Assembly: GCF_000738915.1 (NCBI RefSeq)
Contig: NW_026515638.1
Location: forward strand, 22,882 to 86,881
Source of the DNA: Nematocida ausubeli
Lineage: Eukaryota
DNA: 64,000 nt
Reading direction: 5' to 3'
Below are positions 1-51,466 of the stretch, in pieces. Made by a program: the position numbers and the translations under genes. The first letter of the stretch is position 1; each line of letters begins with the position of its first letter. The notes under the pieces were generated by a model, which saw only the letters and a program-made list of their open reading frames with translations, ran no database searches and was not told the DNA's origin.

Positions 1-273
1 TGGTTCTCTGGAAAGTGCTACTTTTCTGATTTTCCTGTGCTTTGCTATTTTTTTCCAAGTAATAACCCGTTCTTTCTTTTATACAGTGTAGAAGAGATAT
101 TTTTTGCAAATATAGAAGAAGTTAAAAAAAGTAGAGAAAAGAAACTCTAAAAGAAACAGACAGAAATTAAGCGTGTAAGCAGGGCATAAAAATAATAGAG
201 AATACTGCTATACTGAGCGCACTGAAGTATAAATAATCATGATTTTGTGCTCGAATACAATTTAAACTTTAAT

Positions 274-559
274 TGATGTGCCCAAAAGGGGACGACGAGC
301 TAGTCTGGAGATACTAGTCTAGAATAGAGAGTGTAGTTGTCAAGGAAGTTTTATTATCGTAATCCTGCGGATGTCTTTGGTGACTTTGACCTTTTGTGTA
401 CTTGTTGGATGTATTTCTTCTTTCTGTCATTTGCCTCCCTTTTGAATTGTTCTTACTATTTTATAGTCAGTTTCTGATATACGAGGAATCGTCCGGAAGT
501 TGCATTTATCATTGATGCACTTTGGTCACTGAATTAATAAAAGTGGGAATTTTACCACT
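274..559 (-). mobile_element. ~285-bp LTR-like dispersed element, copy 1 (solo-LTR-like)
   Basis: Aligns by eye with 26161-26441, 27151-27401 and 29592-29876. + strand starts TGATGTGCCC and ends TTTTACCACT (CA>CT). Flanked by the direct 5-mer TTAAT (269-273, 560-564). Confidence 0.8.
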
Positions 560-20532: not shown

Positions 20533-20795
20533 AAGTTTCCAGTATAACTGGCTTGGGAAAAGAAGCCAACAGCAACAAAATACTTTCAAGATTAAGCTTT
20601 ATTTCTTCAAAAACCTGTGTATTCCTAGAACCCTTCAGTTTTATTCTTTTCTAGTTAAGTCTTGCAGAGGTTCTGAGAAATTATACTAATAGTTGACTGT
20701 CCATACTTAAATACCCATTTAAAGAATCTTCTGCATTAGGGATATTCAAACTAGAATTATTTTTACAGATGACAAAAACAAGAAAAACAAGAATA
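20533..20795. repeat. near-identical inverted duplicate of 23847-24108
   Basis: Reverse complement matches over ~260 bp (gene 3' end plus 3' flank) with few differences. Confidence 0.95.
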
Positions 20796-21439
20796 CAGCA
20801 AAACACTAGAGAGTAACCAATCATTTTATGCCTATTCCATAAGCGACCATCATCTGGTTGCACATAATAATTATCGTATGGAGTAGATTGGTCTCTAGTA
20901 TTCTCCTCTATTAGTGCTCTTTCTAGAATTTCTATAGAATGACTGTCTGGTTGCAAATAATAATTATCGTATGGAGTAGCTTGGTCTCTAGTATTTTCTT
21001 CTCTCTGGATTGTTTGTTTTATAGGATTTTTATATTCAGCAAATGCAGAGTATCCTATAAGTCTTGTATTTCCTGTAGATTCTGTGTATAAATTGTTTAG
21101 TTGCATAAAACCAGCTTCACATGGAGTAGATTGAGTTGGTTTGGCTGTTTCTTCTCTTAGAAATATTAGCTTTAGAGTATTTTTAATTGGCATAGGTTTT
21201 ATAATCTGAATATCTTCTACATTTACTACAGGTTTTTCAGCTTCTATATGTTTTATATGTATATTAGAATCAATAGACGGGTTGCCGTCCATATATACAC
21301 TATTTTCTTGAGCTTTAGTGTCTTTTTTAGAATTTTTGGGCTCTTTAGTCGCAGAGGCTTTAGTATTCGAAATGGAGTCTAAGTTGGATCTATGGTTGCC
21401 AGATTTTTCTTTCAGTTTGTATACAATTGTATCTTTCAT
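20681..21439 (-). CDS. C-terminal TM protein with internal EENTRDQxTPYDNYYxQPD duplication
   Basis: 252-aa ORF with a single C-terminal TM helix; paralogue at 23561-23961. Confidence 0.8.
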   Translation of the reverse strand: MKDTIVYKLKEKSGNHRSNLDSISNTKASATKEPKNSKKDTKAQENSVYMDGNPSIDSNIHIKHIEAEKPVVNVEDIQIIKPMPIKNTLKLIFLREETAKPTQSTPCEAGFMQLNNLYTESTGNTRLIGYSAFAEYKNPIKQTIQREENTRDQATPYDNYYLQPDSHSIEILERALIEENTRDQSTPYDNYYVQPDDGRLWNRHKMIGYSLVFCCILVFLVFVICKNNSSLNIPNAEDSLNGYLSMDSQLLV

Positions 21440-23560: not shown

Positions 23561-23961
23561 ATGGAAGATACAAAAGGCGATAGACCCACTTCAGTCTCTT
23601 ATTCAAAATTGAATTTAGAATATATAGATGCTGCTTCTGTGAAAAATATAGATGAAGTAATCTCAATTAATGATCAAGTAGAAGAAATCTCCCTAAATAG
23701 TAACTATTCGAAGCAATCAAAAAATCTTCTATAGAAACTATAGTACTGGAAGAAGAAAATATTAGAGACCAAACTGAAAATAATGTTATTCAAGCAAGGG
23801 ATGCAGAAAAAAGTTTTAAATACTTTGTGTTTGGCTTAGTTTGTTCTATTCTTGTTTTTCTTGTTTTTGCCATCTATAAAAATAATTCTAGTTTGAATAT
23901 CCCTAATGCAGAAGATTCTTTAAATGGGTATTTAAGTATGGACAGTCAACTATTAGTATAA
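23561..23961 (+). pseudogene. frameshifted paralogue of 20681-21439
   Basis: MEDTKG...SKNLL* stops at 23734. The -1 frame from the A6 run (23719-23724) reads on to ...KNNSSLNIPNAEDSLNGYLSMDSQLLV*, identical to the paralogue C-terminus. Confidence 0.75.
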
Positions 23962-24560
23962 TTTCTCAGAACCTCTGCAAGACTTAACTAGAAAAGAATA
24001 AAACTGAAGGGTTCTAGGAATACACAGGTTTTGAAGAAATAAAGCTTAATCTTGAAAGTATTTTGTTGCTGTTGGATTCTTTTCCCAAGCCAGTTATACT
24101 GGAAACTTAGTTTTCCTCTTCAAAATATTAGACTTAGTCATACTAAACTTAAATGTAATTTATTTTTCATTTTCCATTCATAGGCGGCAAAGAGAAATTT
24201 ATCAAAGTGATGCCATGAAAGTATAATCTTATTAGATAACTTAAGGAAAATAACAATATATTACCTGTTTAATCATTTGATTGCAGAGACAATAAATAAG
24301 AAGAGGTTCTTATATAGTATTGTCCTACAGTAAAAACCCAGAAGGCAAAGACCAGCACCAACCTACATTTCTAGCCCAGAGAACACTTCATGCTCCCAAG
24401 GCAAGGAAAACCAACAGAGAGAATTACTTTCACTTTCTCACAGGAATTAGAACTGTTAGAGCAGGAGGAGTTTAATTTGTTAAATTCTATAAAACTAGCC
24501 TGTTGTTAGTGTAAGGCACTGTGAATGTTTCTATCCTTCTTGTCATGGTAATGGTAGATT

Positions 24561-25808
24561 TTAATACATGCAACTGTATCTCGATGGCGGCGTATCACAG
24601 CAACTATCTCGACTGTTATATCTTGATGGCGGCGTATCACAGCAACTATCTCGACTGTTATATCTCGATGATGGTATGTCACAGCAACTATCTNNNNNNN
24701 NNNNNNNNNNNNNNNNNNNNNNNNNNNNNNNNNNNNNNNNNNNNNNNNNNNNNNNNNNNNNNNNNNNNNNNNNNNNNNNNNNNNNNNNNNNNNTGTCACA
24801 GCAACTATCTCGACTGTTATATCTCGATGATGGTATGTCACAGCAACTATCTTGACTACTATATCTTGATGGCGGCGTATCACAGCAACTATCTCGACTG
24901 TTATATCTCGATCTCGATGATGGTGTGCAATTAGCATTGTTATATGGATCTTTATGAGAAGACTTGTTATCTCTACCTTCATCTCCTTTTATGTAGTTAT
25001 TTATAGCAGTATTATTATTCTTTCTGTTAACATCAGTATTATCTTTTTTTTTGTCAAAGATTGATAACGAATTTCCTTTGTCTGATGGATTTTTGTCATG
25101 TTTCTTATTCATATTTACACTAGAGTCCTTTTCATTCTCATGCCCATGATAGTTGTTTATACTCTTTTCATTGTTCTTTACACCCTTATTATCTAGATTT
25201 AAATTGTTATTTGCTCCTTTACTTGTTATATCAGATTTGCCATCTTTGTGGCTCTTTCTATCAAGTTCATCTCCATCTTCAGATGCAAACGGATCTTTTT
25301 TATGCTTTCCATCAAGTTCATTTCTGGACTCATAGGAGTCTTGGGGAGGGTGTCCATCAAGTTCATTTTTGGGCTCATAGGGATCTTTTTTATGCTTTCC
25401 ATCAAGTTCATCTTCATCTTCATCTTCGAGTCCAAGATAGTATTTGTCATGCAACATCTTAAGTTCAGGTTCATCTTCAATCTTATATGGTTTTTTTTTA
25501 TGATCTGGATTAGCTACATCTTCAATAAGATCTATATATTCAGGATTCCGCTGGTTCTTGGGAACATTTTGTCTTTCAAAATAATATATACTTTCACCGT
25601 ATTTATTAAAACCTATATAGTAATGATTCGATTTATAACTCGCTACTACCCAGCCATCTTTATCTACGAGAAGATATTTTAAAACTTCTTGTCTTCGATT
25701 TCGCCTTCTCGAAACCACAGCCTCAGCCGCAAACTTATCTGCAGCAACACTATATAAGAATGCGCATACAGCTAATATTTTGATTGTATTTCTTAAATGA
25801 ATATTCAT
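24561..25808 (-). CDS. secreted repetitive protein with acidic DELDGKHKKDP repeats and a C-terminal Cys-Cys tandem array
   Basis: Signal-peptide-like N-terminus (ILAVCAFLYSVAA) and 14-aa repeats SRYNSRDSCCDTPP. True length unknown because of an N gap. Confidence 0.8.
   Translation of the reverse strand: MNIHLRNTIKILAVCAFLYSVAADKFAAEAVVSRRRNRRQEVLKYLLVDKDGWVVASYKSNHYYIGFNKYGESIYYFERQNVPKNQRNPEYIDLIEDVANPDHKKKPYKIEDEPELKMLHDKYYLGLEDEDEDELDGKHKKDPYEPKNELDGHPPQDSYESRNELDGKHKKDPFASEDGDELDRKSHKDGKSDITSKGANNNLNLDNKGVKNNEKSINNYHGHENEKDSSVNMNKKHDKNPSDKGNSLSIFDKKKDNTDVNRKNNNTAINNYIKGDEGRDNKSSHKDPYNNANCTPSSRSRYNSRDSCCDTPPSRYSSQDSCCDIPSSRYNSRDSCCDXXXXXXXXXXXXXXXXXXXXXXXXXXXXXXXXXXDSCCDIPSSRYNSRDSCCDTPPSRYNSRDSCCDTPPSRYSCMY
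24575..24915 (-). repeat. 42-bp coding tandem repeat (SRYNSRDSCCD[TP/IP][P/S])
   Basis: Repeated CACAGCAACTATCTCGACTGTTATATCT units on both sides of the gap. Confidence 0.95.
24694..24793. other. assembly gap (100 N)
   Basis: Run of n inside the 42-bp array. Confidence 1.
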
Positions 25809-26160
25809 ATTCAGTAAATATTCAAGTCTATTTATATGTTAAAATAGAGAAAGTGATATACGTATAAACAAGGAGAAAGTTTTACTATTGGTTTGTTTGA
25901 TCAGTAGTAGAATTCATGCTCTGAATTCTTCTTTTCAACTATCCTGGTATATTCAGATTCAAAGTCATTCTGGGAAACCATTTATCTTCTGTTACGCACA
26001 GCCAGCATTCCTGCCTCCTGGTATATAGAGTTAATTTCAACTGCAGAGAGCTTGTCCGACCTGGAAACCAGTCCCTCCAAATTGACCTCGTTTGAAAGAT
26101 TCATTTTATTGGTTATTCTGGTAAAATTTGCTACCATTAACATGAGAACTAAATTATTCT

Positions 26161-26441
26161 TGACGTGCCCAAAAGGGGGTGACAAGCTAGTCTGGAGATA
26201 GTAGTCTAGAATGGAGAGTGTAGTTGTCAAGGAAGGTTTATTATCATATTTTTTCGGTTGGTGACTGTCATCTTTTGTATTTTTATTGGATGTATTTCTT
26301 ACTGTTGACATATTCCGCTTGTTTTAATATTTCCATGTAACTTAGTAGTAGGCTTCTGATATATGCAAAATCTTTTGGAAAGTGCATTTCTCATTGATGT
26401 ATTTTGGTCACAGAGTTAATGAAAGTGGGAATTTTACCACA
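26161..26441 (-). mobile_element. LTR-like element, copy 2 (solo-LTR-like)
   Basis: TGACGTGCCC...TTTTACCACA, flanked by a perfect 5-bp direct repeat ATTCT (26156-26160, 26442-26446). Confidence 0.85.
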
Positions 26442-27150
26442 ATTCTTTTAGGAAAATAATTCCTTCAGGAAATTATTTAAAGAATAAAATTTGTAGAAAA
26501 AAGCAGCAATGTAGACAATAAGGCATACATCCAGGAAAAATACAAAAATCACAGTGATCAAAGATATTCGGGTATGTGATAAAAATATAAATTACTTGAG
26601 AATTGCCCTTATTAGAGTCTAAAATAGTATCTTCTGACTGAAATATTACTATCATTAGGGCGTGTCAGTTATTATTATGAATATCATTCTTTTCTATCCT
26701 CTATCATGGTTAACTTTCTAGAGATACCATTTATAAAATTTGTTTTTATTTAAATCTTGATTTATTTAACAGTTAAAAAGAGAAAATATTTCCTTCTTCT
26801 TTAATTGGTCTAGACAATCAGAACCAATTGCTTGTATCTTGCATGACGATACAAATAAACCAATAATAGAAAATGCATCAGTCATTAGTCTGTGCATACA
26901 ACATACCATATATATAAAAGTACATTTCTTTATACATCTTGGATAAACTACCTGCATCTCAGTGCATAAATGGGTTTTAATTGATTTTATCACAGAGCTG
27001 TAGAGTATGTAAAGAATAATGTATTTAAAGAATGGAAAAATTCAATAGTACTTCTTCAAACACCATAGAATTTATTCTAAAGAATTATTGGTTAACTCAA
27101 GAATCACCCGAATATAACCCGAATTCGAATAATTTAAATATAAATATAAC

Positions 27151-27401
27151 TGTGGTAAAATTCCCACTTTCATTAACTCTGTGACATTCCTCGTATATCA
27201 AAAACTGACTATATAATAGTAAGAATAATTCATAAAAAAGGAAGATGTCCGAAAGAAAAAAAACAATTATCAAACATGCATCCGGTCAAAGGCACCGAAG
27301 ACATCCGCAGAATTACGATAATAAAACTCCCTGGACAACTACACTCTCCATTCTAGACTATTATCTCCGAACTAGCTCGTCGCCCCCTTTTAGGCACGTC
27401 A
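27151..27401 (+). mobile_element. LTR-like element, copy 3 (internal ~35-bp deletion)
   Basis: TGTGGTAAAATTCCCAC...TAGGCACGTCA; left flank ATAAC, right flank ATGCA. Confidence 0.85.
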
Positions 27402-28229
27402 ATGCACTATAACCCGATGTATATTTTCTATCCATTCAGCTCCATACGCACATGTTTTATACATTTATCCTATATTCCCCATCCCTAATTTACCTCTTCT
27501 GTACTATGTCTTCATTCTTCTGTCTATGTCTTCTTATTATCCTTTCTTCTACATCTTTGCAAAAATAAACTCTACAATATTCGCGCTACCACTACTGTTC
27601 AGAAGGGTTTGTTTCTTCTAAAAAAAAGATAAAGACACACGAAAATCAGAAAACTGCACTTTTTGAAGAACCACTCTCAGCAAACACTCAGCGCAATGTA
27701 GAAAGCTGAACAAACTCCGTATCACACGCCAGCCACATAAAGAACAAAAAGGCTCTGTCCAGACATGAAAACCTATGCGTACACCAGCACAGAACTATAC
27801 ACACATACCACACATGATATACATACACGTATGCACATACTATATACAGACTGCAAATATGCAATATGTATGCTGATAGAGACACATCAGAAGTAGACAA
27901 GAGTGCATTCCTCAAGCATGCCATGCAAGTGCCAAGACACCAGCTGTCTATCTCACCTACCCATCTGCACACACCTCCCTACATCAGCAGGTCTTTCTCC
28001 AGTGCCTGCTGCACATGCCTTGTACACACTCTCCCATTATATTAATTTTTCATCATATGGTCCTCTGAGGTGCACAATTTGCACATAGACCGGGCAACAG
28101 ATCGCAATTAAGTAAACAAACAGCAGAACGTGGTCTAGAGTGCACTTAGAAGGGCCCAATGCACATATTTCCCAGTTTGATCATTTTTTGGGGGTATTTA
28201 AGAGGCACGCACTCTGCATTTCAGAACAC

Positions 28230-28860
28230 CAGGAGAGCTGCATCTGTCTCACGGCGCAGTGCAGCAGGAGAGGGCTGGCTAGGAGGTGGCAGGAGCAAGC
28301 CGGCACTAACCCTGCCGGTGGGTCGTCCACTATTATCATTCCCTTCGGGGTAGCCTATAAGGCCATATGGAGTAGCTTGGATGCCAACTTTGTCATTAGG
28401 AAATTCCGCGCATGTTCTTTTTACCTTGATGCTTGTACATTTAATATTTAGAACCGCTGCGTTGTCTAAGCCGAAGTGGCACTGAACTATGCGTGCACTG
28501 GACTTCCCTGCTCCTGTCCTCAGCACCGACTGGCTCTCTCCTCTGCGCAGCGCGCACGATGGCCTGCTGTGCTGTCTGCAGCGCTCCGGCAAACAGCAGC
28601 ATGCGCGGGCCGCTGGGTTCTCAGGCCAGTCGCAAGACGCCGCTCTCCCTGCATATGCAGCAGCTAACCACTACATGTGTATGCAGCGAGCGAAGATGTG
28701 CTGTGTGCAGGCAGTACATGGCGCCCGTACATGGCCGGTACACACTATTATTAATAAACACCCGCTCCCGATCTGCCTGCTGTCTTGCTGTACTGTGTCC
28801 GTCCTTTGTGTGCTCAACTAATATTCCTTGTCCGCAAGCCTCGAATGGCTTTTTATCTTA
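28230..28860 (+). ncRNA. candidate large structured non-coding RNA (telomerase-RNA-like; identity unproven)
   Basis: GC-rich island without a credible ORF. Long-range helices with G-U pairs (28266-28278/28530-28542; 28288-28297/28509-28518), UUCG and GCAA tetraloop hairpins, CTAACCCT at 28306-28313. Boundaries approximate. Confidence 0.5.
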
Positions 28861-29591
28861 AACTCTTTTACTGTGCTGCTAATTTTCCTTGGAGTAGTAG
28901 TGGGAATAAAATGTTTCTTTTGGTAAGCAATGACCAAGCAAGCGCTGTTTGCGAATAGCTATGTGGTTACATAGGTGTATAGCACTTACATGTACTGTAC
29001 TAGTTGCTAATAAGTGTGCATTGGGCTGAGAAGAACTCTAGTAGTTGGATTAAAATAACTATAGGATAAAGAAATAATGGTTTAAGCAGAGACTTTTATT
29101 TACGAATAGAATATACAACAAAAAACATTTCGAATACTCTAGCATTCATCTTATACCTACCCATTATAAGACAATACCATACATACTCTTAGTGCTGAGA
29201 TGTTTTCTACTGCATAACAAACATTAACAATTGAAACTGCCTCTTCACATAATATATTTATGTAGTAAATTGCAATTTCTCCAGAACTTTCTTACCATTG
29301 CAAGAGGCTCCACAGTAAAAGTATTTTGTGAGAGAGATTATCTCAGCCTTATAAAAGGACTCAAGAATAAACACAGATTCTCTTTTACAGAAGAAGAACA
29401 ATAAGACTGAACGAAGAAATACGCTGAACCACAACCAGAACTTTAAGACTGCCTCAGAGCTTGTGCAGTAACTAAGCCTACCTGCATGCAGTAAAAAGAC
29501 TCTTCAACTCAGATGCTATCCGTATTGGGCTACTATTTCCAGGCCTGGGAAATTTCACGAGTGTGGCATGCCAATTTACTATGCAGATAAT

Positions 29592-29876
29592 TGTGGTAAA
29601 AATACCACTTTCATTAATTCCGTGACCAAAGCGCATCAACGATAAATGAAACTTCCGAAAGATTCCTCGTATATCAGAGACTGAATATAAAATCGAAGAA
29701 CAATACTGAAAAGAGGAGAATGTCTGAAAGAAGAAATACACTTATCAAATATGCAACAGGTCAATGTCACCGAAGACATCCACCGGATTACAATAATAAA
29801 ACTCCCTGGACAACTACACTCTCCATTCTAGACTACTATCTCCAGAATATCTCGTGGCCCCCTTTTGGGCACGTCA
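29592..29876 (+). mobile_element. LTR-like element, copy 4
   Basis: TGTGGTAAAAATACCAC...GGGCACGTCA; flanks ATAAT / ATAAC; 134 bp upstream of the family gene ATG at 30011. Confidence 0.85.
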
Positions 29877-30010
29877 ATAACCGTTATATTAGGATGTTTT
29901 TAAAGAAAACGCATTGTCATTCACCTAAGTGTTTAATAAGAAGACAATTTATAAATATTCCTAATATATCTATTAATATATATTTAAAAAATAATTTATT
30001 TTATTGGAAA

Positions 30011-32686
30011 ATGAAGTATTTTTCTATTTGGACGAAAACAATTATTTTAATCAATATTCTACTGATGAATATAAGCAGAGCAGATATAAAACTAAGCGAA
30101 ATTGAATCAACTTTGAAATTTGAAATTAAAACTAGCCTAAACAGTGTGAAGATAAACCCAGAAGGACCTCTTAACCTTCTACGCGGATTAATTTATCAGA
30201 AGATGGAGTGCATGTATAACAAAAGATTCTTTGCCCCGGAGATTGACACAAAATACAATTTAGAGGAAGATGAAAGTGACTGTAAGAGACAAAATTACTA
30301 CACGTATACACGAGATGAACAGAAGGATAAAGCATACAAAGCACTATCAGAGAATGAAATGGATTTATATACTGAAAATTATCACACTCACCTGATTGAT
30401 CTATTTCCATCTCCTACTGGCGATGTAACCATAGAGACACGAGGGAACCAGTCATTCATTCAGTTCCTTCGGGCAGAAAAAGTAGAGAAATATGCACTGC
30501 ATATTCTGGCTATGCTGCTTCTTTTCTCAGAGGGAGTGAATATTCCCATTGAAGTCACTAACAGCGTACTAAAGGTCTATGAAAAAGACAAAAAAGACGA
30601 GATATACTTTAAAGTACCCATGGCAATCCCATGGATAAGCACAGTAACCAATGAGTTAGAGACAATATGCCAAAAGAAAGCTAAAAGATTAATCATTTTC
30701 TTTAAGGAAAATTCGAATAGTAGCGAAGTGTTGAGCATGCTGAATGATAGATGTACAAAAGCAAGTGTTATCTCTGGGAAGTTCTTAAATAGTCCAAAGT
30801 TCCTGATTCAGTCGTACATATTCGGGTTCATTGACACGGCAAACCAAGCAAAAGAGTTTATTCAAGTTGTTCACTCAATGACAGAGAAATATGTACCAAA
30901 GACGAAAATACTCAGTAGAAGTGGATATTTGTATGACAGGCTGTTTAAGCCTACTGGTGCAGAAGAAGGCACGGACTGCATGGCTTTAATGAAAGACATA
31001 GAGCAGATTAAGAGTATGTATAAGGTCTTTCCATTTCTAGACAGCACAGAAATTCCTGCTTACAGATCTATTCCTTTGTACAACCGAAAAACAAAGTTAT
31101 TTTCTGATAACCGTTTGGAAGACTACAGCAACTGTGTGGAGTGTGTGATTCTTTCTCTTTTCTGCTGCCTGGCATATGACCCAGCAGAGAGAATTTATCG
31201 GACAGACCACATGGGAGATGTCTCTGAAGAACTTAAAGAATTCTTCTCTTTGGAGAACCAGCCAGTTGACACAACAAAGGCAGAATTTCAGAAGGAGTGG
31301 TGCAAAGTTGTTGCAGACTTAAAAAATCCTAGAATTGCATACTGCACGGGAAGAAACGAGTTAGACTGTGGTCTTATAAATATGCTCATGGTTATTGCTG
31401 AAGTGGTAAATGCTCCAGAAGAAGAAAAAGACAAAATACTTGGCTTTTCACAGTATTTAAATGATAAACATGGAGAATTTGATGATAAATTATACGATGC
31501 AGTTGAGAAGTACACAGAATCATTACTTAAACATCTATCCAAGACAAAAAATATAGAAATAGAGTTATCTGAGGTTGAAAGTACTATATATAATAATGGA
31601 AGATATGATATATCAGGTGATATTATTATAAGATTTCAGCACAATGGCATTTATAACACTATAGTTTTGGAAATATCCGACCAGCATAGCAGCATTGAAA
31701 TGAAATCCCCTACCATGAAATTCACAGATCTCCGAGTGAATAAAATGAATAAGATGATAAAAAGCTGCAAAAATAGAAAAACCTTCATTGAAAATCTATT
31801 TTTAATATACGCTGGGTACGAAATGAGAAAAATCAGAGATAATGAGGAAAACAAAAAATATATAAAAAATGAGATACAGAATGTCGTTGAGAACAACTTC
31901 ATAGATATAAATAGACTGTTGTTAATTAAGAAAATCAGTGACTTAGACTACAAAATAGAGCTGCTTACAGGTTCTATTGTATACAGCATGGATAAAAAGC
32001 TATTTCCATGCCATCCTATTGTTCGCTTCACCTCTAACATACTAGGAAGCACAGAACTAGACAACCAAAATACTCAAAATAGAATACTTCCTTCAATTGT
32101 TGCTGCAAATCTGCATAGTACAAGAGAAGGTAATCTAAACTATCCAAAAATACAGTTGCAAGAAAAAACGTATAATTATATATTAACAAACCTAAGTCTT
32201 CAGGAGTTTGTTAAGTACACATTAGATTATGATATAAGTATTTTCATAATGTGGATTAAATACTGTATAGATAAGATAGATCCAGACAAAAATCCATTCT
32301 TAAACTTACTATTAAGCAGTTTGGTAAATGAAATTGTTTGTGACCATCTATTTAAAGATGACAGTATGAAGTACTCTAAGATAATTGATGAGCTTATTAT
32401 AAAAAACTATCCAAGCAGAAAAGATAAACTAATAAGTGAAATTCACTTCATATGGATTGTATATATTTGTGCAAGAGAGAATCCAAATATAGAACTTATT
32501 AAGGAAAATATAAATGCAATACACAGTGCAAAGTACATTACACTAGAATCTCGTTCTTATACTGAAGAGTGTTTTGGATTTGATAAGGTTGTAGAAACTC
32601 TTAAAAAACTGAAAGATTCTTTATGTGACAACGAGGATTCTATCCGTAAGATTAACAAGATTATATTTATATTAGAATTGGAATAA
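30011..32686 (+). CDS. Large gene family protein (NemLGF-like), signal peptide
   Basis: MKYFSIWTKTIILINILLMNISRA leader; INPEGPLNLLRG, NKRFFAPEI, YSNCVECVILSLFCCLAYDP, RFTSNILGS. The ORF-track start at 29720 lies inside the repeat element. Confidence 0.9.
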   Translation: MKYFSIWTKTIILINILLMNISRADIKLSEIESTLKFEIKTSLNSVKINPEGPLNLLRGLIYQKMECMYNKRFFAPEIDTKYNLEEDESDCKRQNYYTYTRDEQKDKAYKALSENEMDLYTENYHTHLIDLFPSPTGDVTIETRGNQSFIQFLRAEKVEKYALHILAMLLLFSEGVNIPIEVTNSVLKVYEKDKKDEIYFKVPMAIPWISTVTNELETICQKKAKRLIIFFKENSNSSEVLSMLNDRCTKASVISGKFLNSPKFLIQSYIFGFIDTANQAKEFIQVVHSMTEKYVPKTKILSRSGYLYDRLFKPTGAEEGTDCMALMKDIEQIKSMYKVFPFLDSTEIPAYRSIPLYNRKTKLFSDNRLEDYSNCVECVILSLFCCLAYDPAERIYRTDHMGDVSEELKEFFSLENQPVDTTKAEFQKEWCKVVADLKNPRIAYCTGRNELDCGLINMLMVIAEVVNAPEEEKDKILGFSQYLNDKHGEFDDKLYDAVEKYTESLLKHLSKTKNIEIELSEVESTIYNNGRYDISGDIIIRFQHNGIYNTIVLEISDQHSSIEMKSPTMKFTDLRVNKMNKMIKSCKNRKTFIENLFLIYAGYEMRKIRDNEENKKYIKNEIQNVVENNFIDINRLLLIKKISDLDYKIELLTGSIVYSMDKKLFPCHPIVRFTSNILGSTELDNQNTQNRILPSIVAANLHSTREGNLNYPKIQLQEKTYNYILTNLSLQEFVKYTLDYDISIFIMWIKYCIDKIDPDKNPFLNLLLSSLVNEIVCDHLFKDDSMKYSKIIDELIIKNYPSRKDKLISEIHFIWIVYICARENPNIELIKENINAIHSAKYITLESRSYTEECFGFDKVVETLKKLKDSLCDNEDSIRKINKIIFILELE

Positions 32687-36501: not shown

Positions 36502-36700
36502 GAAGGTACCAAGGACTTGAGTAAATGTAATATGCAGTTTTGTTCATTTTAATTTATATCGGGTTATATCGGGTTATAATATGTTATAATTTATTCTAAT
36601 TTCCGTTATAATATGTTATTAATAGGTTATAATACGTTATAATTTATTCCAATTTATTTTAATTTCTGTTACAATACGCTATTTTCCGTTATAATTTTCA

Positions 36701-37183
36701 TTATATAAGGTACCTTTCAATGTACAAAAGAATGACAATTCCAATATTCAAGCCAATCCAGGTTGTAAAGAACTCAAATGGCATGGAAATTGATTCCTTC
36801 CTGGAAATGAGAATTTGTCTGGCTAGTAGAAGAAGGTCTCTGAAGTCACTCCCAAAGGCAGAATTCCTGGGCATAATGTATCCAATTTGTGCTGAATCTA
36901 AGTTGCACTTTCCACTTCTGTAGGCTATGACATCTTTTGCTGCAATATATCTGACTTGTTTAAATTTCTGGATTGGACAGTTGCACTTGTGGTTGTACGC
37001 ACTTGGGTTCTTCTTCATGACTTCTTTTATGCATGATTTATAAAATGGTTTATCTTTGGCATCTAATCCTGTCATAGCAAATATGTCAAATTCATTTGCC
37101 AAAACAAGCTCTAATTTCTCCTTCTTTTCCAGTTCAGAAAGTGTATATATCTTCACTCTATTAATATCTCCCATTATAAGCAT
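36701..37183 (-). CDS. hypothetical protein with C-terminal TM
   Basis: 160-aa ORF with a hydrophobic C-terminus. Confidence 0.65.
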   Translation of the reverse strand: MLIMGDINRVKIYTLSELEKKEKLELVLANEFDIFAMTGLDAKDKPFYKSCIKEVMKKNPSAYNHKCNCPIQKFKQVRYIAAKDVIAYRSGKCNLDSAQIGYIMPRNSAFGSDFRDLLLLARQILISRKESISMPFEFFTTWIGLNIGIVILLYIERYLI

Positions 37184-37227
37184 GCTTAGACAAAATAATT
37201 CTGAAAAAAATAATCAGAATAATATAG

Positions 37228-37366
37228 ACTAAATACACTGGGATATAGACTAAATATAACAGGATACTACTAAGAATAGTCATAAATACAACAGGATAGT
37301 ACTAAATACACTGGGATAGTACTAAATACAACAGAGTATGACTAAATATAACAGGATGCTACTAAA
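37228..37366. repeat. ~20-bp degenerate tandem repeat (ACTAAATACAACAGGATAGT)
   Basis: About 7 units visible; shares the TACAACAGGAT core with 44025-44375. Confidence 0.85.
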
Positions 37367-37423
37367 GTAACCCTGAATAACCCGAATACAATATATACGA
37401 AATAACCTCAAAATAGTTTATTT

Positions 37424-39299: not shown

Positions 39300-39670
39300 G
39301 ACAGAACTTTTTACACTTTTCCCAAAACTGCCAGGACTTAATCCACTTTTCCCGAAATAGACAAGATTTTTTACACTTCTCCTAAAATAGACAGAACTTA
39401 ATCCACTATATCCTGAATTTGACAAGACTTATTCCACTCTTATAAAATATATCAAGACTTATGGCACATATATTTATGTATTACAACTTTGTGCAGGACT
39501 TTTTACACTTCTCCCAAAATAGACAAGACTTAATCCACTCACACCATAAATAGACAGAACTTAATCCACTATATCCTGAATTTGACAGAACTTAATCCAT
39601 TTTGTCACAATTTATTCCACTTCTCCAAGACTTAATCCACTATATCCCAAAACTGACAAGACTTAATCCA
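39300..39670 (+). repeat. array of the 17-bp motif GACAAGACTTAATCCAC at ~30-bp period (left arm)
   Basis: Units start at about 39300, 39330, 39360, 39390, 39421, 39451, 39492, 39522, 39553, 39583 and onward; variable 13-14-nt spacers. Confidence 0.95.
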
Positions 39671-39727
39671 CACATAAATAAATATAACATAACTGAAATA
39701 ATATAATTTTATTAGACTAAGAACCAA

Positions 39728-41041
39728 TTAAACCGCAGTTTCTGCAGCAATCATGCTCTTTGCAGCAGGTGTTACACCTTTCTGCTTCATTTTATCTGAA
39801 TATTTTATGAAAAAGTATCCAGGAATACCAACCATCGGACAAAATATCGAAAAAATCAAAAATACGTTATTTTTTAAGATAGGATAGACTAAGTCAAAGC
39901 CAATTAAAGCCAAACTAGAGAATGCTGCATTCGCCAAAGACCCTAATCCTGCTGCAATTGATATATTTCTCTCTTCTTGCAAGATCATTGATGGCAAAAT
40001 CCACGGTAAACTAGCTAAACCCATTGAGAAAAAGACTAAAAATACCCCACCATACCATGCTACAGCAATTGGAGACGACACTGTCGCCATTAAAATTAGC
40101 GCTAAAAATGATCCCGCACCTGAAATTGGCATGAGATACCTGAAAACGTGTATCTTTAAGAATATTATTATGCAGAATATTGCTGTCCCTATCATTCCTG
40201 CAAAATTAAAAAAGTCTTCAGCCCAAGAATTTAAAATATTTTGATCGCTGAAGAACTTGCTTCTGTTTGATAAAATAGGATTAATTCCTGTCATTTGCTG
40301 TGCAATCTGCATAAATAAGCAGGAGAGAATGAAAAATATCTTGTGCTTATCTTTGGAGTAGTGCGATGGGAAACCACTTCGGGTTGCACGAATAATTTCA
40401 ATCTCATTAGAATTTCTCTTTAAATTTTTTGTGAATAAAAAGTTTGTTATAACGGAAATACCTGATATTGCCCCAATTATATAAAAGATCACAATCTTAT
40501 TACTTGGATCCAGGTTCTTTGATATTGTTCCCTCCAAAAATATTCCTAAATTAACAAACAATCCCTGAAGAGTTGCAATTTTTGCCCCAGCGGTTATTCC
40601 TAATAAGGAAATATAATAAACTGGCCCTAATGCACATGCAATTCCTGTTCCAACCCCTAAAAATAAACGAACAACAAAAAGTAAAATATTTGACTTCAAA
40701 AATCCACAAAATACGTTAGAAATACTAATTAAAAATGCAGAAATTGTAAAAATATACTTAAAATACGGATTTGGAATAATTTTGAATATTCCCAATAAGG
40801 AAATACTTAATGAAAACAAAAATGTTCCAATAAACATGCTACTTGCAACAAGGCGCCAATAGGGCATGGCATCAAGCCTAGTTAGCACAGGATCAATTCG
40901 GGTTATATCGGGTTTAATCGGGTTATAAAGGGTTATCTCTGAGAGTGTATTTAAAGATGTCAGTGACATCCCAAAAAGAATTGGGAGTGAGACTGGGCCT
41001 AAAACACTTAGTGCCGTGTGAATTAGTCTATTTTTGCTCAT
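39728..41041 (-). CDS. MFS sugar porter (hexose transporter-like)
   Basis: VRLFLGVGTG, QIAQQMTGINPI (QQxxGIN signature), GLASLPW; ~12 TM helices. Confidence 0.9.
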   Translation of the reverse strand: MSKNRLIHTALSVLGPVSLPILFGMSLTSLNTLSEITLYNPIKPDITRIDPVLTRLDAMPYWRLVASSMFIGTFLFSLSISLLGIFKIIPNPYFKYIFTISAFLISISNVFCGFLKSNILLFVVRLFLGVGTGIACALGPVYYISLLGITAGAKIATLQGLFVNLGIFLEGTISKNLDPSNKIVIFYIIGAISGISVITNFLFTKNLKRNSNEIEIIRATRSGFPSHYSKDKHKIFFILSCLFMQIAQQMTGINPILSNRSKFFSDQNILNSWAEDFFNFAGMIGTAIFCIIIFLKIHVFRYLMPISGAGSFLALILMATVSSPIAVAWYGGVFLVFFSMGLASLPWILPSMILQEERNISIAAGLGSLANAAFSSLALIGFDLVYPILKNNVFLIFSIFCPMVGIPGYFFIKYSDKMKQKGVTPAAKSMIAAETAV

Positions 41042-41074: not shown

Positions 41075-42560
41075 GGAAAAAGTCTTGCATGATTGGACAA
41101 GACTTATGGTGGTAGGGGAAAAAGTCTTGGTAGAAATGACAGGACTTATGGTGTATAGGGATTAAGTCTTGTCTGAATTTTTGTTGTAGTTAGTCTTATT
41201 TTGTGTACATTATTTATTGTGTATGTGGATTAAGTCTTGTCATTTGTTACATTATTTATGATGTGTGTGGATTAAGTGTTGGTGAAAAGTGTGTTGTAAT
41301 TGGTCGTATTTATGAACATTATTTATGGCAGTAGAGGAATATATTATGAATAAATTTACAGGACTTAATATACTATGTGTAAAAAGTCTTGTCTGTTTTG
41401 GATGTGTAGGGGATTAAGTCTTGGTGAGTTTATAAAAAGAGAAAAAAGTCCTGTCAAATTTATAAAAAGAGGATTAAGTCTTGTCATTTATGGGAGAAGT
41501 GGAATAAGTCCTGCACAAAGTTGTAATACATAAATATATGTGCCATAAATCTTGACATATTTTATAAGAGTGGAATAAGTCTTGTCATTTATGGGGAGAT
41601 GTGGAATAAGTCCTGCACAAAGTGTAATAAATTGTGACAAAGTTCCATAAGTCCTGCACAAAGTGTAATAAATTCTGTCTTATTTCTATTATATTTTATT
41701 ATAAATTAACCAAAACTTTATACACTATGCGTAATAAGTCTTATTAAAATGGTCATTACTTTATACACTATGTGTAATAAGTCTTGCTATTTTCTGTTTA
41801 TGCAACAGATATCACTATAAACCCAGATAATAACAGGAATATAACCCTAAATACTTTATCTCTTGTTGTTTCTCTATTTCTATTGCCATTTATATTCATG
41901 CAGCCAGAAATAACCCGAAGAATAAATAAGAAATACTTCTCCTTATTACCCCCTGGGGTAGCCCCTTGAAAAAATAAAATGACAAGACTTATGGACTGTG
42001 GAATAAGTCTTGTTATTTTTGGGGAAGGGTGGAAAAAGTAATGGTAAAGAGGAATAAGTCTTGATGAATTTATAAAAAGAGGAAAAAATAATGACAAAGT
42101 GGAATAAATTGTGGTGAAGTGGATTAAATTTTGTCTATTTATGGTGTGGGTGGAGTAATTCTTGTCTGTTTTGGGATAGGGTGGAATAAGTCTTGGTGAG
42201 TTTATAAAAAGTAAATTAAATTCTGTCTATTTTCGGGAGAAGTGTAAAAAGTCTTGTCATTTTGGGGGAGGGATGGAGTAAATTATGAACTTCCCGCCAT
42301 AAGTCTTGACAGCCCGCCATAAATTATGAATTTCCCGCCATAAATCTTGTTTTGCCCGCCATAAGTTATGTTCCCGCGTAATAATTCCTGTCATCCCGCC
42401 ATAAGTTCTGACTAAGTGGAATAAGTCTTGCAAGCCCGCCATAAATTCTGACAGCCCGCCATAAGTTATGTTCCCGCGTAATAAGTCCTGAAAGCCCGCC
42501 ATAAGTCCTGGCATATTTTATAAAAATGGATTAAGTCTTGACTAAGTGGAATAAGTCCTG
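41075..42560 (-). repeat. array of the same 17-bp motif, mostly in opposite orientation (right arm), ending in a CCCGCCATAA variant array
   Basis: Many GTGGA[A/T]TAAGTCTTGTC variants. 41471-41586 is a near-exact inverted copy of 39421-39536. Confidence 0.9.
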
Positions 42561-42814
42561 CTACCTCCTCATATTTTCTCCTCCTCACCCCTCCAAGGGT
42601 CCCCCCTTGCACTCAATTCTCTCCAATGGTCCCCCCTTACAGCCCCTTTTCCCCAAAATATTCCCCATATACCATGTGACCAATCTTTGATATATTTCCC
42701 AATCGGGTAATTCATTTGACAGAAATTTTCTGCTTAATTAAATCTAATATAGTAATTAATATTTCCTTATACGGTAATATTAAACATATAAATATTTACA
42801 TCAGGGGAAAAATA

Positions 42815-43336
42815 ATGCGAGGAATAAAGGACATAGACAACACAATTAAGGAGATGGATAAACAATACGACGCAAACTTTGGTGACTGGGTAAGGAGTGA
42901 AGAGAATTTAGACGTATTATCCGTTAACTTAAAGAAATACGTATATAAATATGACCAAGAATTATTTACTGCAGTAATTAGTTGGATAACCAATGATTGG
43001 GCATTTAATTCAAAAGTAAAATTGATTTATAAAGTCTTCAGGGATGGATTATTTCATACAAATTCACCGGAAGACATTCAGAATTCGAAAGATTCCATTT
43101 TTATTATAAAGAAAATAATTAAAAATTGGAGTGTATTACAGGTCTCTGAACTAATTATTGAATTTATAACAGAAATGGAGAAGGAAGAGAAGAAATTATT
43201 CTTGTTATGGGTTTTGGATGAAGTACCACATGATAGGCTGACTGAAATATTCATTAGAATTGATAATTCTGTTGATTGGGCCTTGAAAATAACGATAATT
43301 AAGCATAATAAGATGGGGAATATGCAGAATAAGTGA
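42815..43336 (+). CDS. hypothetical helical protein (173 aa)
   Basis: Coding-like ORF from MRGIKD, preceded by a GGGG motif; ORF-track extension from TTG rejected. Confidence 0.75.
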   Translation: MRGIKDIDNTIKEMDKQYDANFGDWVRSEENLDVLSVNLKKYVYKYDQELFTAVISWITNDWAFNSKVKLIYKVFRDGLFHTNSPEDIQNSKDSIFIIKKIIKNWSVLQVSELIIEFITEMEKEEKKLFLLWVLDEVPHDRLTEIFIRIDNSVDWALKITIIKHNKMGNMQNK

Positions 43337-43455
43337 GAAGAAATTCGGAAAATGTGAAATAAAGTTGTTCATTTTAGTAAAAGTTTATAGATTTTTGAGT
43401 GAAGGGGTTTAAAACTCGGTTTATTATCATGATTATTTGGCAGTTTAGTGATATA

Positions 43456-43575
43456 GTGGCATAAATTGTGACAAAGTGGATTAAGTCTTGTCACTATGGA
43501 AAAAGTTCTGTCATTATGGATTAAGTTCTGTCATTATGGATTAAGTTCTGACAAAGTGGAAAAAGTCTTGTCATT
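43456..43575 (-). repeat. six 20-bp units of the same motif family
   Basis: GTGGCATAAATTGTGACAAA / GTGGATTAAGTCTTGTCACT / ATGGAAAAAGTTCTGTCATT / ATGGATTAAGTTCTGTCATT and so on. Confidence 0.95.
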
Positions 43576-43601
43576 TTCGCAATAAGAGGAAAAAAGACTT
43601 C

Positions 43602-43973
43602 TTAAAATGAGAATCCAGACAGTGACATATACACAGAAAGAACTGCCCCAAGTACTCCCCCAGATAGAATAGAAAGTAAAAAGGAGTTCACCCTTCTGGT
43701 ATGATGCATTTCTGCATTATTATAAGACAAAGACAAAAGTAACTTATATTCTTCCCCTCGGATATGTCTAAAGCCAAATTGATCAAGTGCATGGACATAA
43801 GATACTAATAAAGAAAGAATAATGTACTTCTCAGATAAAGACAACAAAGAACAAAATGGTTCTATAATCCGTAATATATCCATATGATCATTTGAATTAT
43901 TTTCACCCGTTAATATAGGACTATTCAGGTCATTTCTATTCAGGTTATTCTGAGTGTCTTTGTTCATATTCAT
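43602..43973 (-). CDS. small membrane protein (123 aa)
   Basis: ATG ORF with two hydrophobic segments. Confidence 0.6.
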   Translation of the reverse strand: MNMNKDTQNNLNRNDLNSPILTGENNSNDHMDILRIIEPFCSLLSLSEKYIILSLLVSYVHALDQFGFRHIRGEEYKLLLSLSYNNAEMHHTRRVNSFLLSILSGGVLGAVLSVYMSLSGFSF

Positions 43974-44024
43974 AATAAAATAATTACAATTATATTAGTA
44001 GTTATATTAGTGTATATTAGTATA

Positions 44025-44375
44025 TATTAGTCTATGCTACAACAGGATATTGTCTTGCTAATAGAATACTTTAGTGTATTTTACTAGTAGGTTAGTCTAT
44101 GTTACAACGGGGTATTGCTCTACTAGTATATTTTACTAAAAAATTATTCTATTTCACTAGTAGGTTAGTCTATGCTACAACAGAGTATTGTAGTACTAGT
44201 AAAATTTATTTTATTTTAGTATATTTTAGTCACAAATACAACAGGATATTGCTCTACTAGTATATTTTACTAAAAAAATACTAGTAGCTTACTACTAGCT
44301 TAGTCTATACTACTATAAATTACTAGAAATTAATAAAAATTAGTCACAAATACAACAGGACATTGCTCTACTAGT
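44025..44375. repeat. degenerate repeat TACAACAGGATATTGCTCTACTAG
   Basis: About 5 copies interspersed with ACTAGT-rich sequence. Confidence 0.8.
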
Positions 44376-44616
44376 AAAGCTCGCTATAAATTACTATAAA
44401 TTACTACTAAAACACACTAGAAGCTAATAAATATACAATACACTTGGGATAATATACTCATTCTATTCATGCACTCTGACTAATATACTGATGTAATATG
44501 TGTATTTGATTGATATATGTGATTATTTGGGATTATTTTATTGATATATGGATAATTGTTCCGTTATTATTTTAATTAATTGTCGGTTAAAAAAGAAATC
44601 TTTTTTCAGTTTTTAT

Positions 44617-49561: not shown

Positions 49562-49633
49562 GGTGGCTTGGTCTAGTGGTATGATTTGTGCTTCGGGTGC
49601 ACGAGGTGCCGGGTTCGATTCCCGGAGCCACCC
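49562..49633 (+). tRNA. tRNA-Pro (anticodon CGG)
   Basis: Acceptor stem GGTGGCT/AGCCACC, D arm GTCTAGTGGTATGA, anticodon arm TGTGC-TTCGGGT-GCACG, T arm CCGGG-TTCGATT-CCCGG. Confidence 0.95.
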
Positions 49634-49836: not shown

Positions 49837-50019
49837 ATATTTCAGGCAGAAGATAGTAGTTTATAGCCAGATAGTAAATAAGAGTGCTTATCAAAAGGAG
49901 TTTATTATTATATTTTTGAAGATATCTTAGTCTTCTAGTATACGAAGAATATTCGGATTATATCACTGATGGACTCTTGTGGTCTCAGAATAACCATGAG
50001 AGATTCTACTGCCGCCATA
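49837..50019 (-). mobile_element. eroded, internally deleted copy of the LTR-like element
   Basis: AGATAGTAGT, GGAGTTTATTATT, TATACGAAGAAT..TTCGGA and TATCACTGATGGACT..TGGTCTCAGAAT are colinear with copy 1 (TATACGAGGAAT..TCCGGA, TATCATTGATGCACTTTGGTCACTGAAT). Confidence 0.5.
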
Positions 50020-51466
50020 ATATGATGGATATTCTAGTGATTATATTCTGTATTCTGGATGTATTCTGGATATATTCTGGATATTCTGCTAGACTAAACT
50101 CTTTGGGAATAAGCATATATATACTTCTGCTTTTTGTGAAATATACTTATTAGTCTGTTAGCTTGCTTATTATGTGCTTATTTTTATTCGTGTTATATTC
50201 GGGTTCTAGTACAGTAGATAGTCTAAATTTTGGGTTATTCAAATTATTTATTAGAGAATTAGTCTGCTTCTGTGGGATGGGCTGGATTTAAGTATACAGT
50301 CACTTTTAATTCTCTCTAGGAAGGATGTGCTTAGATATTAACAGATATTCCTTTGTGCTTTCTAGTAATTTTCTTTAAATTCTGGAAGACCTGTGTGAAT
50401 ATTCAGTCATTTAATAGAAGAGAAATAGGCATATTCTTAAGTTAGCAGCTGAATATATCCTAATATAACCCGAATATGCTAGATATAATTTGTACTTTTT
50501 TCTTCTTATTTTGATTTTCTATTTGTATTACAGTATATAGATTTGTTTTTGTTTGTTCCTTTGCCTGATGAACTAGTTTAATTTTTGAACAGATTTAAGC
50601 ACTTTGTAAATAAACAGCAGAATAATCACGTGTTTATTTATGGGTTTGCAAGTGTATTCTACTATACAAATAAAGCATAATAATTAGTGCGCATAAACAG
50701 GGAAATATTCCAGATATTTAGTAGTGTAGAATAAAGAGTGTGCTTTTAAGGATTCTGGTTATATTTTGGATATGCATGGGTGCACTGTGAATTGTATCCT
50801 TTTTTCTTAAGCTTTTATTTTCTTCTTTAATACTTTCTCTTGAAATTATAAAGGCCTTTTAAATTATATATTCCAAAGTGCTTCCTTATATGGGTGATCC
50901 TGTAGATTTAGGTTTAAGAAGTAAGAATATTACCAGACTCTATAATATTCCTGTCTTTCCTGTCTTTCTTGTGTCTATATTCTCATGCCAAATAATTTTA
51001 TGAGAATTCGGGTTATAAGCAAACCACACTCCCAAATAGCAGCACTTAAAGCACATGAAATATAACCAAAAATAACCAAACTGTGTTAAAATATGTTAAT
51101 GCCTTTGTGACTGTTGTAAATCTGCTTATTATACCATTCTGTAGTGCGTAATATGCAGGTGCATTAATGAATAAGTGAATGCTTTGATGTTCTGGCTAGC
51201 ACACAGAAATATACGGACTTTCACAGAATAATTCACACAGTATACTTGCAGTGTGGACTAAAATACTCTCTTTAAGCAGACTTATTTGTTTATTTTTCAC
51301 ACTCTTCTACAGAATTCCCTAGCAGACAGTCTTTCTAGTGCTGATGGAATGTGGAAATATAAACAAGAAATATATCAATATATACAAATAAATAAAGAGT
51401 ATTTTATTGCTTATCTGTTATTTCGGTCTATTTAAAGAGAAATTAGTTTAATATTAGGTACTACAA

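Follow-up and report, generated by a model that had tools for sequence, protein, structure and literature searches.

What kind of unit is formed by the 2.7-kb stretch at positions 27151 to 29876 of this Nematocida ausubeli DNA, in which two TG...CA repeats on the same strand enclose a non-coding interior with a GC-rich island? N. ausubeli is a microsporidian parasite of Caenorhabditis (roundworms), and the window, meaning the whole stretch of DNA analysed, is 64 kb long with a mean GC of 0.35. Proteins encoded in the window group into clusters in which the named members belong to this species. An earlier sequence-only reading took the 2.7-kb stretch for a mobile unit that carries a structured RNA. 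Our analysis reveals that the island is an RNA gene with several copies and a discrete transcript, which belongs to no known family, and this we regard as a solid new fact. As to the unit as a whole, we lean somewhat towards a cassette that occurs repeatedly, with two old TG...CA repeats on either side of this multicopy gene, whose separate transcript measures ~545 nt. The RNA is likely a polyadenylated product of RNA polymerase II (Pol II), and is likely a folded non-coding RNA kept at high dose; the cassette probably spread by copying at the DNA level and not by reverse transcription.

An unannotated RNA gene of this length, with several near-identical copies, a clean transcript in two samples and a diverged homolog, is unexpected in microsporidia, which have been described as keeping a minimal RNA set, with 18 non-coding RNAs (ncRNAs) in Encephalitozoon (PMC5499648). 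It is also directly testable in a laboratory worm-parasite system.

A multicopy, separately transcribed RNA gene

Both copy number and expression were assessed on Logan contigs from public sequencing runs, which are designated by codes (X numbers). Seven of the 21 runs were used, the runs with small word shares (X15, X17-X19 and X21) and the remaining DNA runs being left out. Depth was taken from the DNA runs X1, X2, X6 and X8 (X1, X6 and X8 for the edges of the interior). Transcription was taken from X13 and X16, which come from one sample and whose kinds ('?' and 'RNA?') were guessed automatically, and from X20, which belongs to a separate study and is the only run recorded as RNA (depleted of ribosomal RNA). 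Contig depth is equal neither to copy number nor to expression level; contigs show neither strand nor expression rank, and parts that they leave uncovered are not thereby proved silent. The features of the interior are as follows.

27402..29591, plus strand: non-coding interior, edges at ~3-8x flank-contig depth
27531..28880, plus strand: high-copy core (upstream region, RNA gene, downstream element), ~8-23x flank-contig depth
28195..28201, plus strand: TATA-like box TATTTAA, 27 nt upstream of the widest RNA contig, with a G-rich run behind the box
28228..28771, plus strand as suggested by the TATA/AATAAA geometry: discrete transcript, ~545 nt, 56% GC, from X13, X16 and X20 contigs
28753..28758, plus strand: AATAAA, 13 nt short of where the widest RNA contig ends

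Had the interior been single-copy, this would have spoken against mobility. Instead, it is multicopy, and contig depth steps up across the left repeat (C3) and down across the right repeat (C4). Depth in the core compares with that of the flanks as 263-319 with 33-34 in X1, 58-67 with 3.4-5.7 in X6, 157-164 with 7-18.5 in X8 and 13917 with 917-1413 in X2. The edges of the interior reach 2.5-7.7x flank depth (X1, X6, X8), about one third of the core. Diploidy has been reported for N. ausubeli (PMC10845963), and reading depth accordingly puts the core at roughly 4-10 loci and the full interior at fewer. The absence of gag and pol from the interior, as described from sequence, was borne out, since none of its 34 frames of 40 or more codons reached the Pfam cut-off (best E 0.023).

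A variant contig of X6 (29433-29704, depth 10.7), with six other letters and two gaps, bridges the interior and the right repeat, while the flank contigs of this run are identical to the window. Sibling contigs of the interior are 97-99.5% like the window (0.5-3% different), whereas C3 and C4 differ from each other by 14%. Because fresh retrotransposition would reset the two repeats to identity, the locus is either an old master or one of a set of copies made as DNA.

The GC island is the only place in the 64 kb where 500-nt windows exceed 50% GC (0.57 and 0.52). Each of the three RNA or probable RNA runs yields one contig there, at 28239-28743 (X13), 28228-28771 (X16) and 28361-28715 (X20). 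No contig of these three runs covers 28050-28227 or 28772-28950, both of which are covered by the DNA run X6. The shares of interior words predicted from the RNA spans (0.188 for X16, 0.106 for X20) are close to those observed (0.19 and 0.12), so these two runs hold almost no other interior sequence; the absence of the multicopy neighbours from them argues against carry-over of DNA. RNA contigs are confined to the island, although contigs cannot exclude a rare long RNA from repeat to repeat, and none of them contains a circular joint.

The widest RNA contig ends, on the AATAAA side, in seven letters that do not match the window, suggesting a poly(A) tail. A TATA-like box and a GGG/CCC motif have been reported to precede the start of microsporidian ncRNAs (PMC5499648). 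From the TATA and AATAAA signals, the ~545-nt RNA would be a polyadenylated Pol II product of the plus strand.

The repeats and the probable movement of the block

The repeat occurs six times in the window, within 30 kb. The sequence-only reading had counted four copies, and the two old copies E and F are additional.

1..273, minus strand: diverged homolog of the start of the interior, immediately behind copy A, running off the window edge
274..559, minus strand: repeat copy A, flanks ATTAA/ATTAA
22786..23062, plus strand: old repeat copy F, flanks AATAT/CATAT, E 1.8e-10 in a profile search
26117..26667 (26117-26160 and 26447-26667), plus strand: old repeat copy E, split by copy B, flanks GTTAT/GTTAT
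26161..26441, minus strand: solo repeat copy B, flanks AGAAT/AGAAT, nested in copy E
27146..27150, plus strand: left outer flank ATAAC, candidate target-site duplication, within a local TATAACCCG cluster
27151..27401, plus strand: left repeat C3, TG...CA, 251 bp, with a 35-bp internal deletion and no terminal inverted repeat
29592..29876, plus strand: right repeat C4, TG...CA, 285 bp, flanks ATAAT/ATAAC
29877..29881, plus strand: right outer flank ATAAC, as read in the sequence

The 285-bp repeat stands alone with 5-bp duplications of its own, as solo long terminal repeats (LTRs) do. All four copies other than the C3/C4 pair have flanks that match in 4/5 or 5/5 letters, and in the nesting of B in E each insertion has its own 5-bp duplication. 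The 3' part of copy E is significant by itself (score 113 against 47+-6 for shuffles), whereas its 5' part is not (68 of 300 shuffles were equally good). Terminal inverted repeats are absent from the repeat (3-6 of 20 letters matching). Five independent insertion sites show a palindromic target bias, RTWAY.

Weak profile matches to the repeat at 49846-49993 and 50702-50751 (E 0.005-0.4) are possibly additional decayed fragments. Run X1 has a loose end at 27140 in a 335-nt contig of depth 254, which contains a full-length repeat ~9% different from C3 behind a purine-rich 5' flank. This contig may point to a subfamily that is high in copy number and has another neighbour, but its depth may average merged copies. 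The word TATAACCCG or its reverse occurs 14 times in the window (27113, 27408, 33538 ... 61647), often closely paired, and this recurring intergenic motif may be of promoter or minisatellite type.

The C3/C4 pair is largely as it had been described. Its coordinates are exact, ATAAC stands immediately outside both outer ends, and the two repeats are clearly diverged, 214 of 250 aligned letters (86%) being identical and C3 lacking 35 bp. They are each other's closest relatives by informative sites (8 vs 2 vs 0) and sisters in a tree (ultrafast bootstrap, UFBoot, 96; branches of ~0.08 each). The inner flanks are ATGCA at C3 and ATAAT at C4, and near-matching flanks of its own are indeed found at C4 alone of the pair (4/5, ATAAT/ATAAC, vs 2/5, ATAAC/ATGCA, at C3). 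An identical 5-mer at two independent sites has a chance of ~4% (1 in 25) under a position weight matrix (PWM) built from five sites, a small sample.

A second case in which the repeat adjoins interior sequence is found at copy A, 27 kb from C3. The 273 nt directly behind copy A align with the start of the interior at ~60% likeness (score 133 vs 48+-7 for shuffles, 0 of 300 as good), while the upstream flanks of A and C3 are unrelated (68.5 vs 62+-8). Seven other pairs of flanks of repeat copies align at noise level. Beyond positions 1-273, just past the left edge of the window, there may be a paralogous RNA gene.

These observations can be joined in the following scheme. The repeat would have been placed by an integrase of Ty3/gypsy type with the RTWAY bias, and two repeats would have come to flank the RNA gene, with inner flanks that resemble old target sites and not a primer-binding site (PBS) or a polypurine tract (PPT). 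The repeat-interior-repeat block would then have been copied, either by an integrase acting on its outer ends, which would make it a composite element and ATAAC the duplication belonging to it, or else through recombination into a solo repeat; either route would leave a perfect outer 5-mer and old, target-like inner flanks. Transcription would start near 28228, driven by the TATA-like box, and end at a poly(A) site near 28771. The RNA may serve as a protein-binding scaffold, its copies being kept alike by selection and gene conversion. Movement of the 2.7-kb block is probable, and the function of the RNA putative. If the cassette moves as a block, short TG...CA repeats would have a way to take up an RNA gene and multiply it with no reverse transcription involved.

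The best-surviving alternative holds that the RNA gene belongs to a multicopy host family which never moved with the repeats, C3 and C4 being separate solo insertions in AT-rich DNA and the outer ATAAC a product of chance. We consider it possible but doubtful. That every other copy has flanks of its own at 4/5 or 5/5, and C4 at 4/5, is what this explanation expects, and the diverged homolog suggests an old RNA gene. However, it must also accommodate depth steps that fall at both repeats, a variant contig that bridges the interior and the right repeat, the recurrence of repeat plus interior start at copy A behind unrelated upstream flanks, and the lack at C3 of a duplication of its own.

Several results weigh against the cassette, and some of them speak for the host-family explanation; those on folding, given in the next section, belong with them. 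The core is ~3x more abundant than the edges by contig depth, so the RNA gene lies, in most of its copies, outside any near-identical full cassette. Copies A and C4 each have their own flanks that look like duplications. The outer ATAAC pair (P ~0.04 by chance, given the target bias) is weaker evidence than had been assumed, since the repeat is a unit that stands by itself and has the RTWAY bias; the site of copy E is also ATAAC, on the opposite strand. The word TATAACCCG lies on both sides of C3 (27113 and 27408), as if C3 alone had entered a cluster of this motif. The sisterhood of C3 and C4 fits a pair, but may equally mean one shared subfamily only. No empty site with a single ATAAC was found among the 15 of 28 joints listed in four DNA runs. 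In X13, the observed word share of 0.26 exceeds the predicted 0.176, leaving ~0.08 of interior words outside the island. The mobile unit carrying an RNA keeps the support of the multicopy interior, the sister repeats, a discrete transcript without protein homologs and the arrangement at copy A, and loses part of what had been placed on ATAAC.

A true non-autonomous LTR retrotransposon, whose LTR-to-LTR RNA was moved by a Ty3/gypsy helper and whose locus here is an old master copy with a decayed or unusual PBS and PPT, is in our view unlikely. It would account for the TG...CA direct repeats, the 5-bp duplications, the many solo copies, the sister repeats and the X13 interior words from outside the island, and six LTR families have been reported for Nematocida sp. 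1, which is this species (PMC4202319, Table 1). However, neither a PBS nor a PPT is evident, as had been noted earlier: at the inner junctions no TGG occurs before position 19 (that is, within 18 nt) in either orientation, and the longest purine run in the last 30 nt is 3 nt (plus) or 6 nt (minus). The repeats are 86% alike against 97-99.5% for the sibling interiors, and the main RNA is internal. A self-priming PBS was also considered and rejected, as its 7-nt matches, found in both orientations, are at chance level. In a search for an autonomous gag-pol partner with matching ends, five motifs gave 0 matches in the readable supplement of PMC4202319, where line-wrapped sequence could hide a motif.

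The proposed membership among known non-coding LTR elements is not supported, since PBS, PPT and hammerhead are all missing and the RNA is internal, with promoter-like and poly(A)-like signals of its own. Large retrotransposon derivatives (LARDs) are longer than 4 kb and have a structured non-coding interior. TRIMs (terminal-repeat retrotransposons in miniature) measure less than 1 kb and have a PBS and a PPT (PMC10886601). The cassette resembles both in its TG...CA direct repeats, 5-bp duplications, solo copies and a non-coding, multicopy interior joined to the repeats. It differs from them in its length of 2.7 kb, in lacking PBS and PPT, in repeats far more diverged than the sibling interiors, and in a main RNA that begins and ends inside the interior.

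Cassandra, Helenus and Ajax (TRIMp3) are likewise terminal-repeat elements tied to an RNA gene, with a 5-bp duplication in fungal members; Helenus and Ajax, like TRIM, have PBS and PPT (PMC10886601). In that group, however, the sequence derived from tRNA or 5S RNA lies in the LTR, provides a Pol III promoter and is thought to be non-functional (PMC10886601), whereas the RNA gene of the cassette is internal, ~545 nt long, of no Rfam family and accompanied by TATA and AATAAA signals. The repeats contain no sequence derived from tRNA or 5S RNA, the only tRNA of the window being at 49562. Retrozymes share with the cassette a non-autonomous terminal-repeat design and a structured non-coding RNA, but the repeats here lack a hammerhead (Rfam and motif scan) and the RNA contigs lack a circular joint.

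Composite transposons consist of two short mobile units carrying a passenger gene. The cassette has in common with them two self-standing repeats around a passenger, an outer duplication and inner flanks like old target sites; unlike them, it has neither a transposase nor terminal inverted repeats, and its passenger is an RNA gene. By analogy, the way in which the cassette works would come closest to that of a composite element whose passenger is an RNA gene. Only tentatively do we extend this to a eukaryotic composite element whose two short repeats are integrase substrates and which multiplies an RNA gene; the product of that gene would be an abundant, polyadenylated, structured ncRNA of a new class, retained across lineages of Nematocida, within one of the most reduced groups of eukaryotic genomes.

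Folding, homologs and class of the RNA

The features on which the nature of the RNA depends are these.

28254..28553, plus strand: predicted 5' domain with a long closing stem (28254-28297/28509-28553) and a multibranch core, z -3.2, 0 of 100 shuffles
28299..28319, plus strand: predicted 7-bp hairpin, pair probability 0.97, its loop holding the telomere-template-like 8-mer CUAACCCU (28306-28313)
28381..28485, plus strand: 34-codon hydrophobic micro-ORF (open reading frame), the coding alternative
28388..28467, plus strand: AU-rich core common with the homolog, 22/29, an apparent 1-nt indel, then 47/51
28819..28853 (end approximate, as judged from the joint), plus strand: second stretch in common with the homolog, lying downstream of where the RNA ends, with two small hairpins and a T run; joint 28467->28819, 35 letters on the short side

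The island had been called GC-rich and heavily paired. The first part of this description stands, while heavy pairing applies in part only: the 5' domain (z = -2.5 on the minus strand) and the hairpin at 28645-28690 (z = -2.7, 2 of 100) are significant, and the remaining six of eight sub-regions are not. The whole island gives z = -1.8 (2 of 100 shuffles as good) and the transcript span z = -1.4 (6 of 60), and sliding 150-nt folding finds no local z below -2.3. Overall, predicted folding is only modestly better than that of shuffles. Among the sibling contigs, six substitutions fall at predicted paired places, of which four keep the pair and two break it, which is near chance; a bulge is also removed, and no two-sided compensatory change occurs among these contigs.

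A 620-nt contig (depth 63.6 in X6, with the same joint at 171.7 in X2 and at 0 in X1 and X8) is a diverged homolog of the interior. It matches 28417-28467 (47/51) and again from 28819, in the same order. A second species or an old subfamily is its probable source, and it spans about the island; since the contig ends near both island borders, the homolog may also be repeated.

Searches for a known RNA class were negative. Rfam gave nothing credible, either for the window at gathering score or for interior and island at E<=10, and pattern scans of the RNA for group II domain V and hammerhead gave nothing that holds up. RNase P/MRP was rejected, as the CR-I-like word found at 28399 is not intact in the homolog and no CR-V was seen; so were signal recognition particle (SRP) RNA, small nuclear RNA (snRNA) and box C/D RNA, the transcript strand having no helix-8 motif, Sm site or box C, with no Rfam match at E<=10 for the first and none for the others. 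A U1-like UUACCU in the core loop and a branch-point-like CACUAAC in a hairpin, seen by eye, were dropped as short words. Patterns of the RNA core and of the repeat had no match in metagenome contigs, nor a degenerate core pattern in viral contigs. Compared with the 18 RNAs of the Encephalitozoon set (PMC5499648), the ~545-nt RNA is alike in its TATA-like box and GGG/CCC motif before the start, but falls in none of those classes by Rfam or motif and is longer and multicopy. The accessible part of that paper mentions neither Nematocida nor telomerase. A literature search, thin and partly swamped by unrelated papers, found no description of this repeat or RNA; the accessible part of PMC10393165 does not mention transposons, LTRs or telomeres, nor that of PMC9762603 non-coding RNA.

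The RNA might instead be a highly folded messenger for a hydrophobic peptide of 34 residues (28381-28485), in a layout that recalls the mRNAs of bacterial type I toxins; we judge this improbable. The part that the homolog keeps best overlaps with the ORF, two of the seven differences in the 29 visible letters are synonymous third positions (compared by hand), and the RNA is likely polyadenylated. However, an apparent 1-nt indel against the homolog falls inside the ORF (22/30 with the shift, 11/30 without), and U-rich sequence yields hydrophobic codons anyway. The first ATG of the RNA, 139 nt in, opens an upstream ORF that stops after two codons. The peptide is absent from the protein collection and has no Atlas or Pfam match, and the two long frames of the island have no homolog in protein searches. 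Five exact look-ups in that collection, including one for a 988-aa extension of the downstream gene, found nothing. A micro-ORF may nevertheless be compatible with this absence of protein homologs and domains.

That the RNA is an unreported Nematocida telomerase RNA, with CUAACCCU as template for TTAGGG, was tested and is very improbable, as the word is predicted to be shut in its 7-bp hairpin and not single-stranded with a free 3' flank, the U-rich loop 28419-28449 offers no pseudoknot helix of 7 or more bp (only nine 6-bp candidates), and the gene has several copies. The idea had come from the 8-nt word itself, which lies on the sense strand 8 nt after the core-closing stem (chance 0.037 when every permutation counts, 0.009 for this permutation alone), and from the long enclosing stem. 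In vertebrate telomerase RNA, the linker between the core-enclosing helix and the template is 8 nt long. The boundary of the vertebrate template is set by this helix together with a linker of fixed length, pseudoknot and distal stem-loop are both called universal, and the length of vertebrate and fungal telomerase RNAs is similar to that found here (PMC4712671). TTAGGG is implied as the older microsporidian repeat (PMC13174016), and no Nematocida telomere repeat was found in the literature, including the accessible parts of PMC13174016 and PMC11592040.

Neighbouring genes and other features of the window

30011..32686, plus strand: large-family gene of 891 aa, 135 nt downstream of the cassette and paralogous to the 901-aa gene at 841-3546

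The 891-aa and 901-aa proteins are 23% identical (E 4e-22), and the former may be labelled NemLGF1. The repeat adjoins genes of this large family of secreted proteins, at 135 and 282 nt from two start codons, and may therefore reshape their promoters. At 29720-30010, the right repeat opens a frame that would extend the 891-aa gene by 97 codons to the 988 aa mentioned above; a 929-aa partial form of the gene is annotated in another strain.

Segments 20533-20802 and 23840-24108 form a near-perfect inverted duplication (98-99%) around small hypothetical genes, which are duplicated in the annotation of another strain; repeat copy F lies between its arms. At 24535-24912, a 42-bp coding tandem repeat with a 100-N gap lies inside a 415-aa ORF. 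Dense intergenic minisatellite arrays of 10-, 20- and 30-bp units occupy 36550-37370, 39300-39680 and 41200-44390, partly inverted around a transporter gene at 39728-41041.

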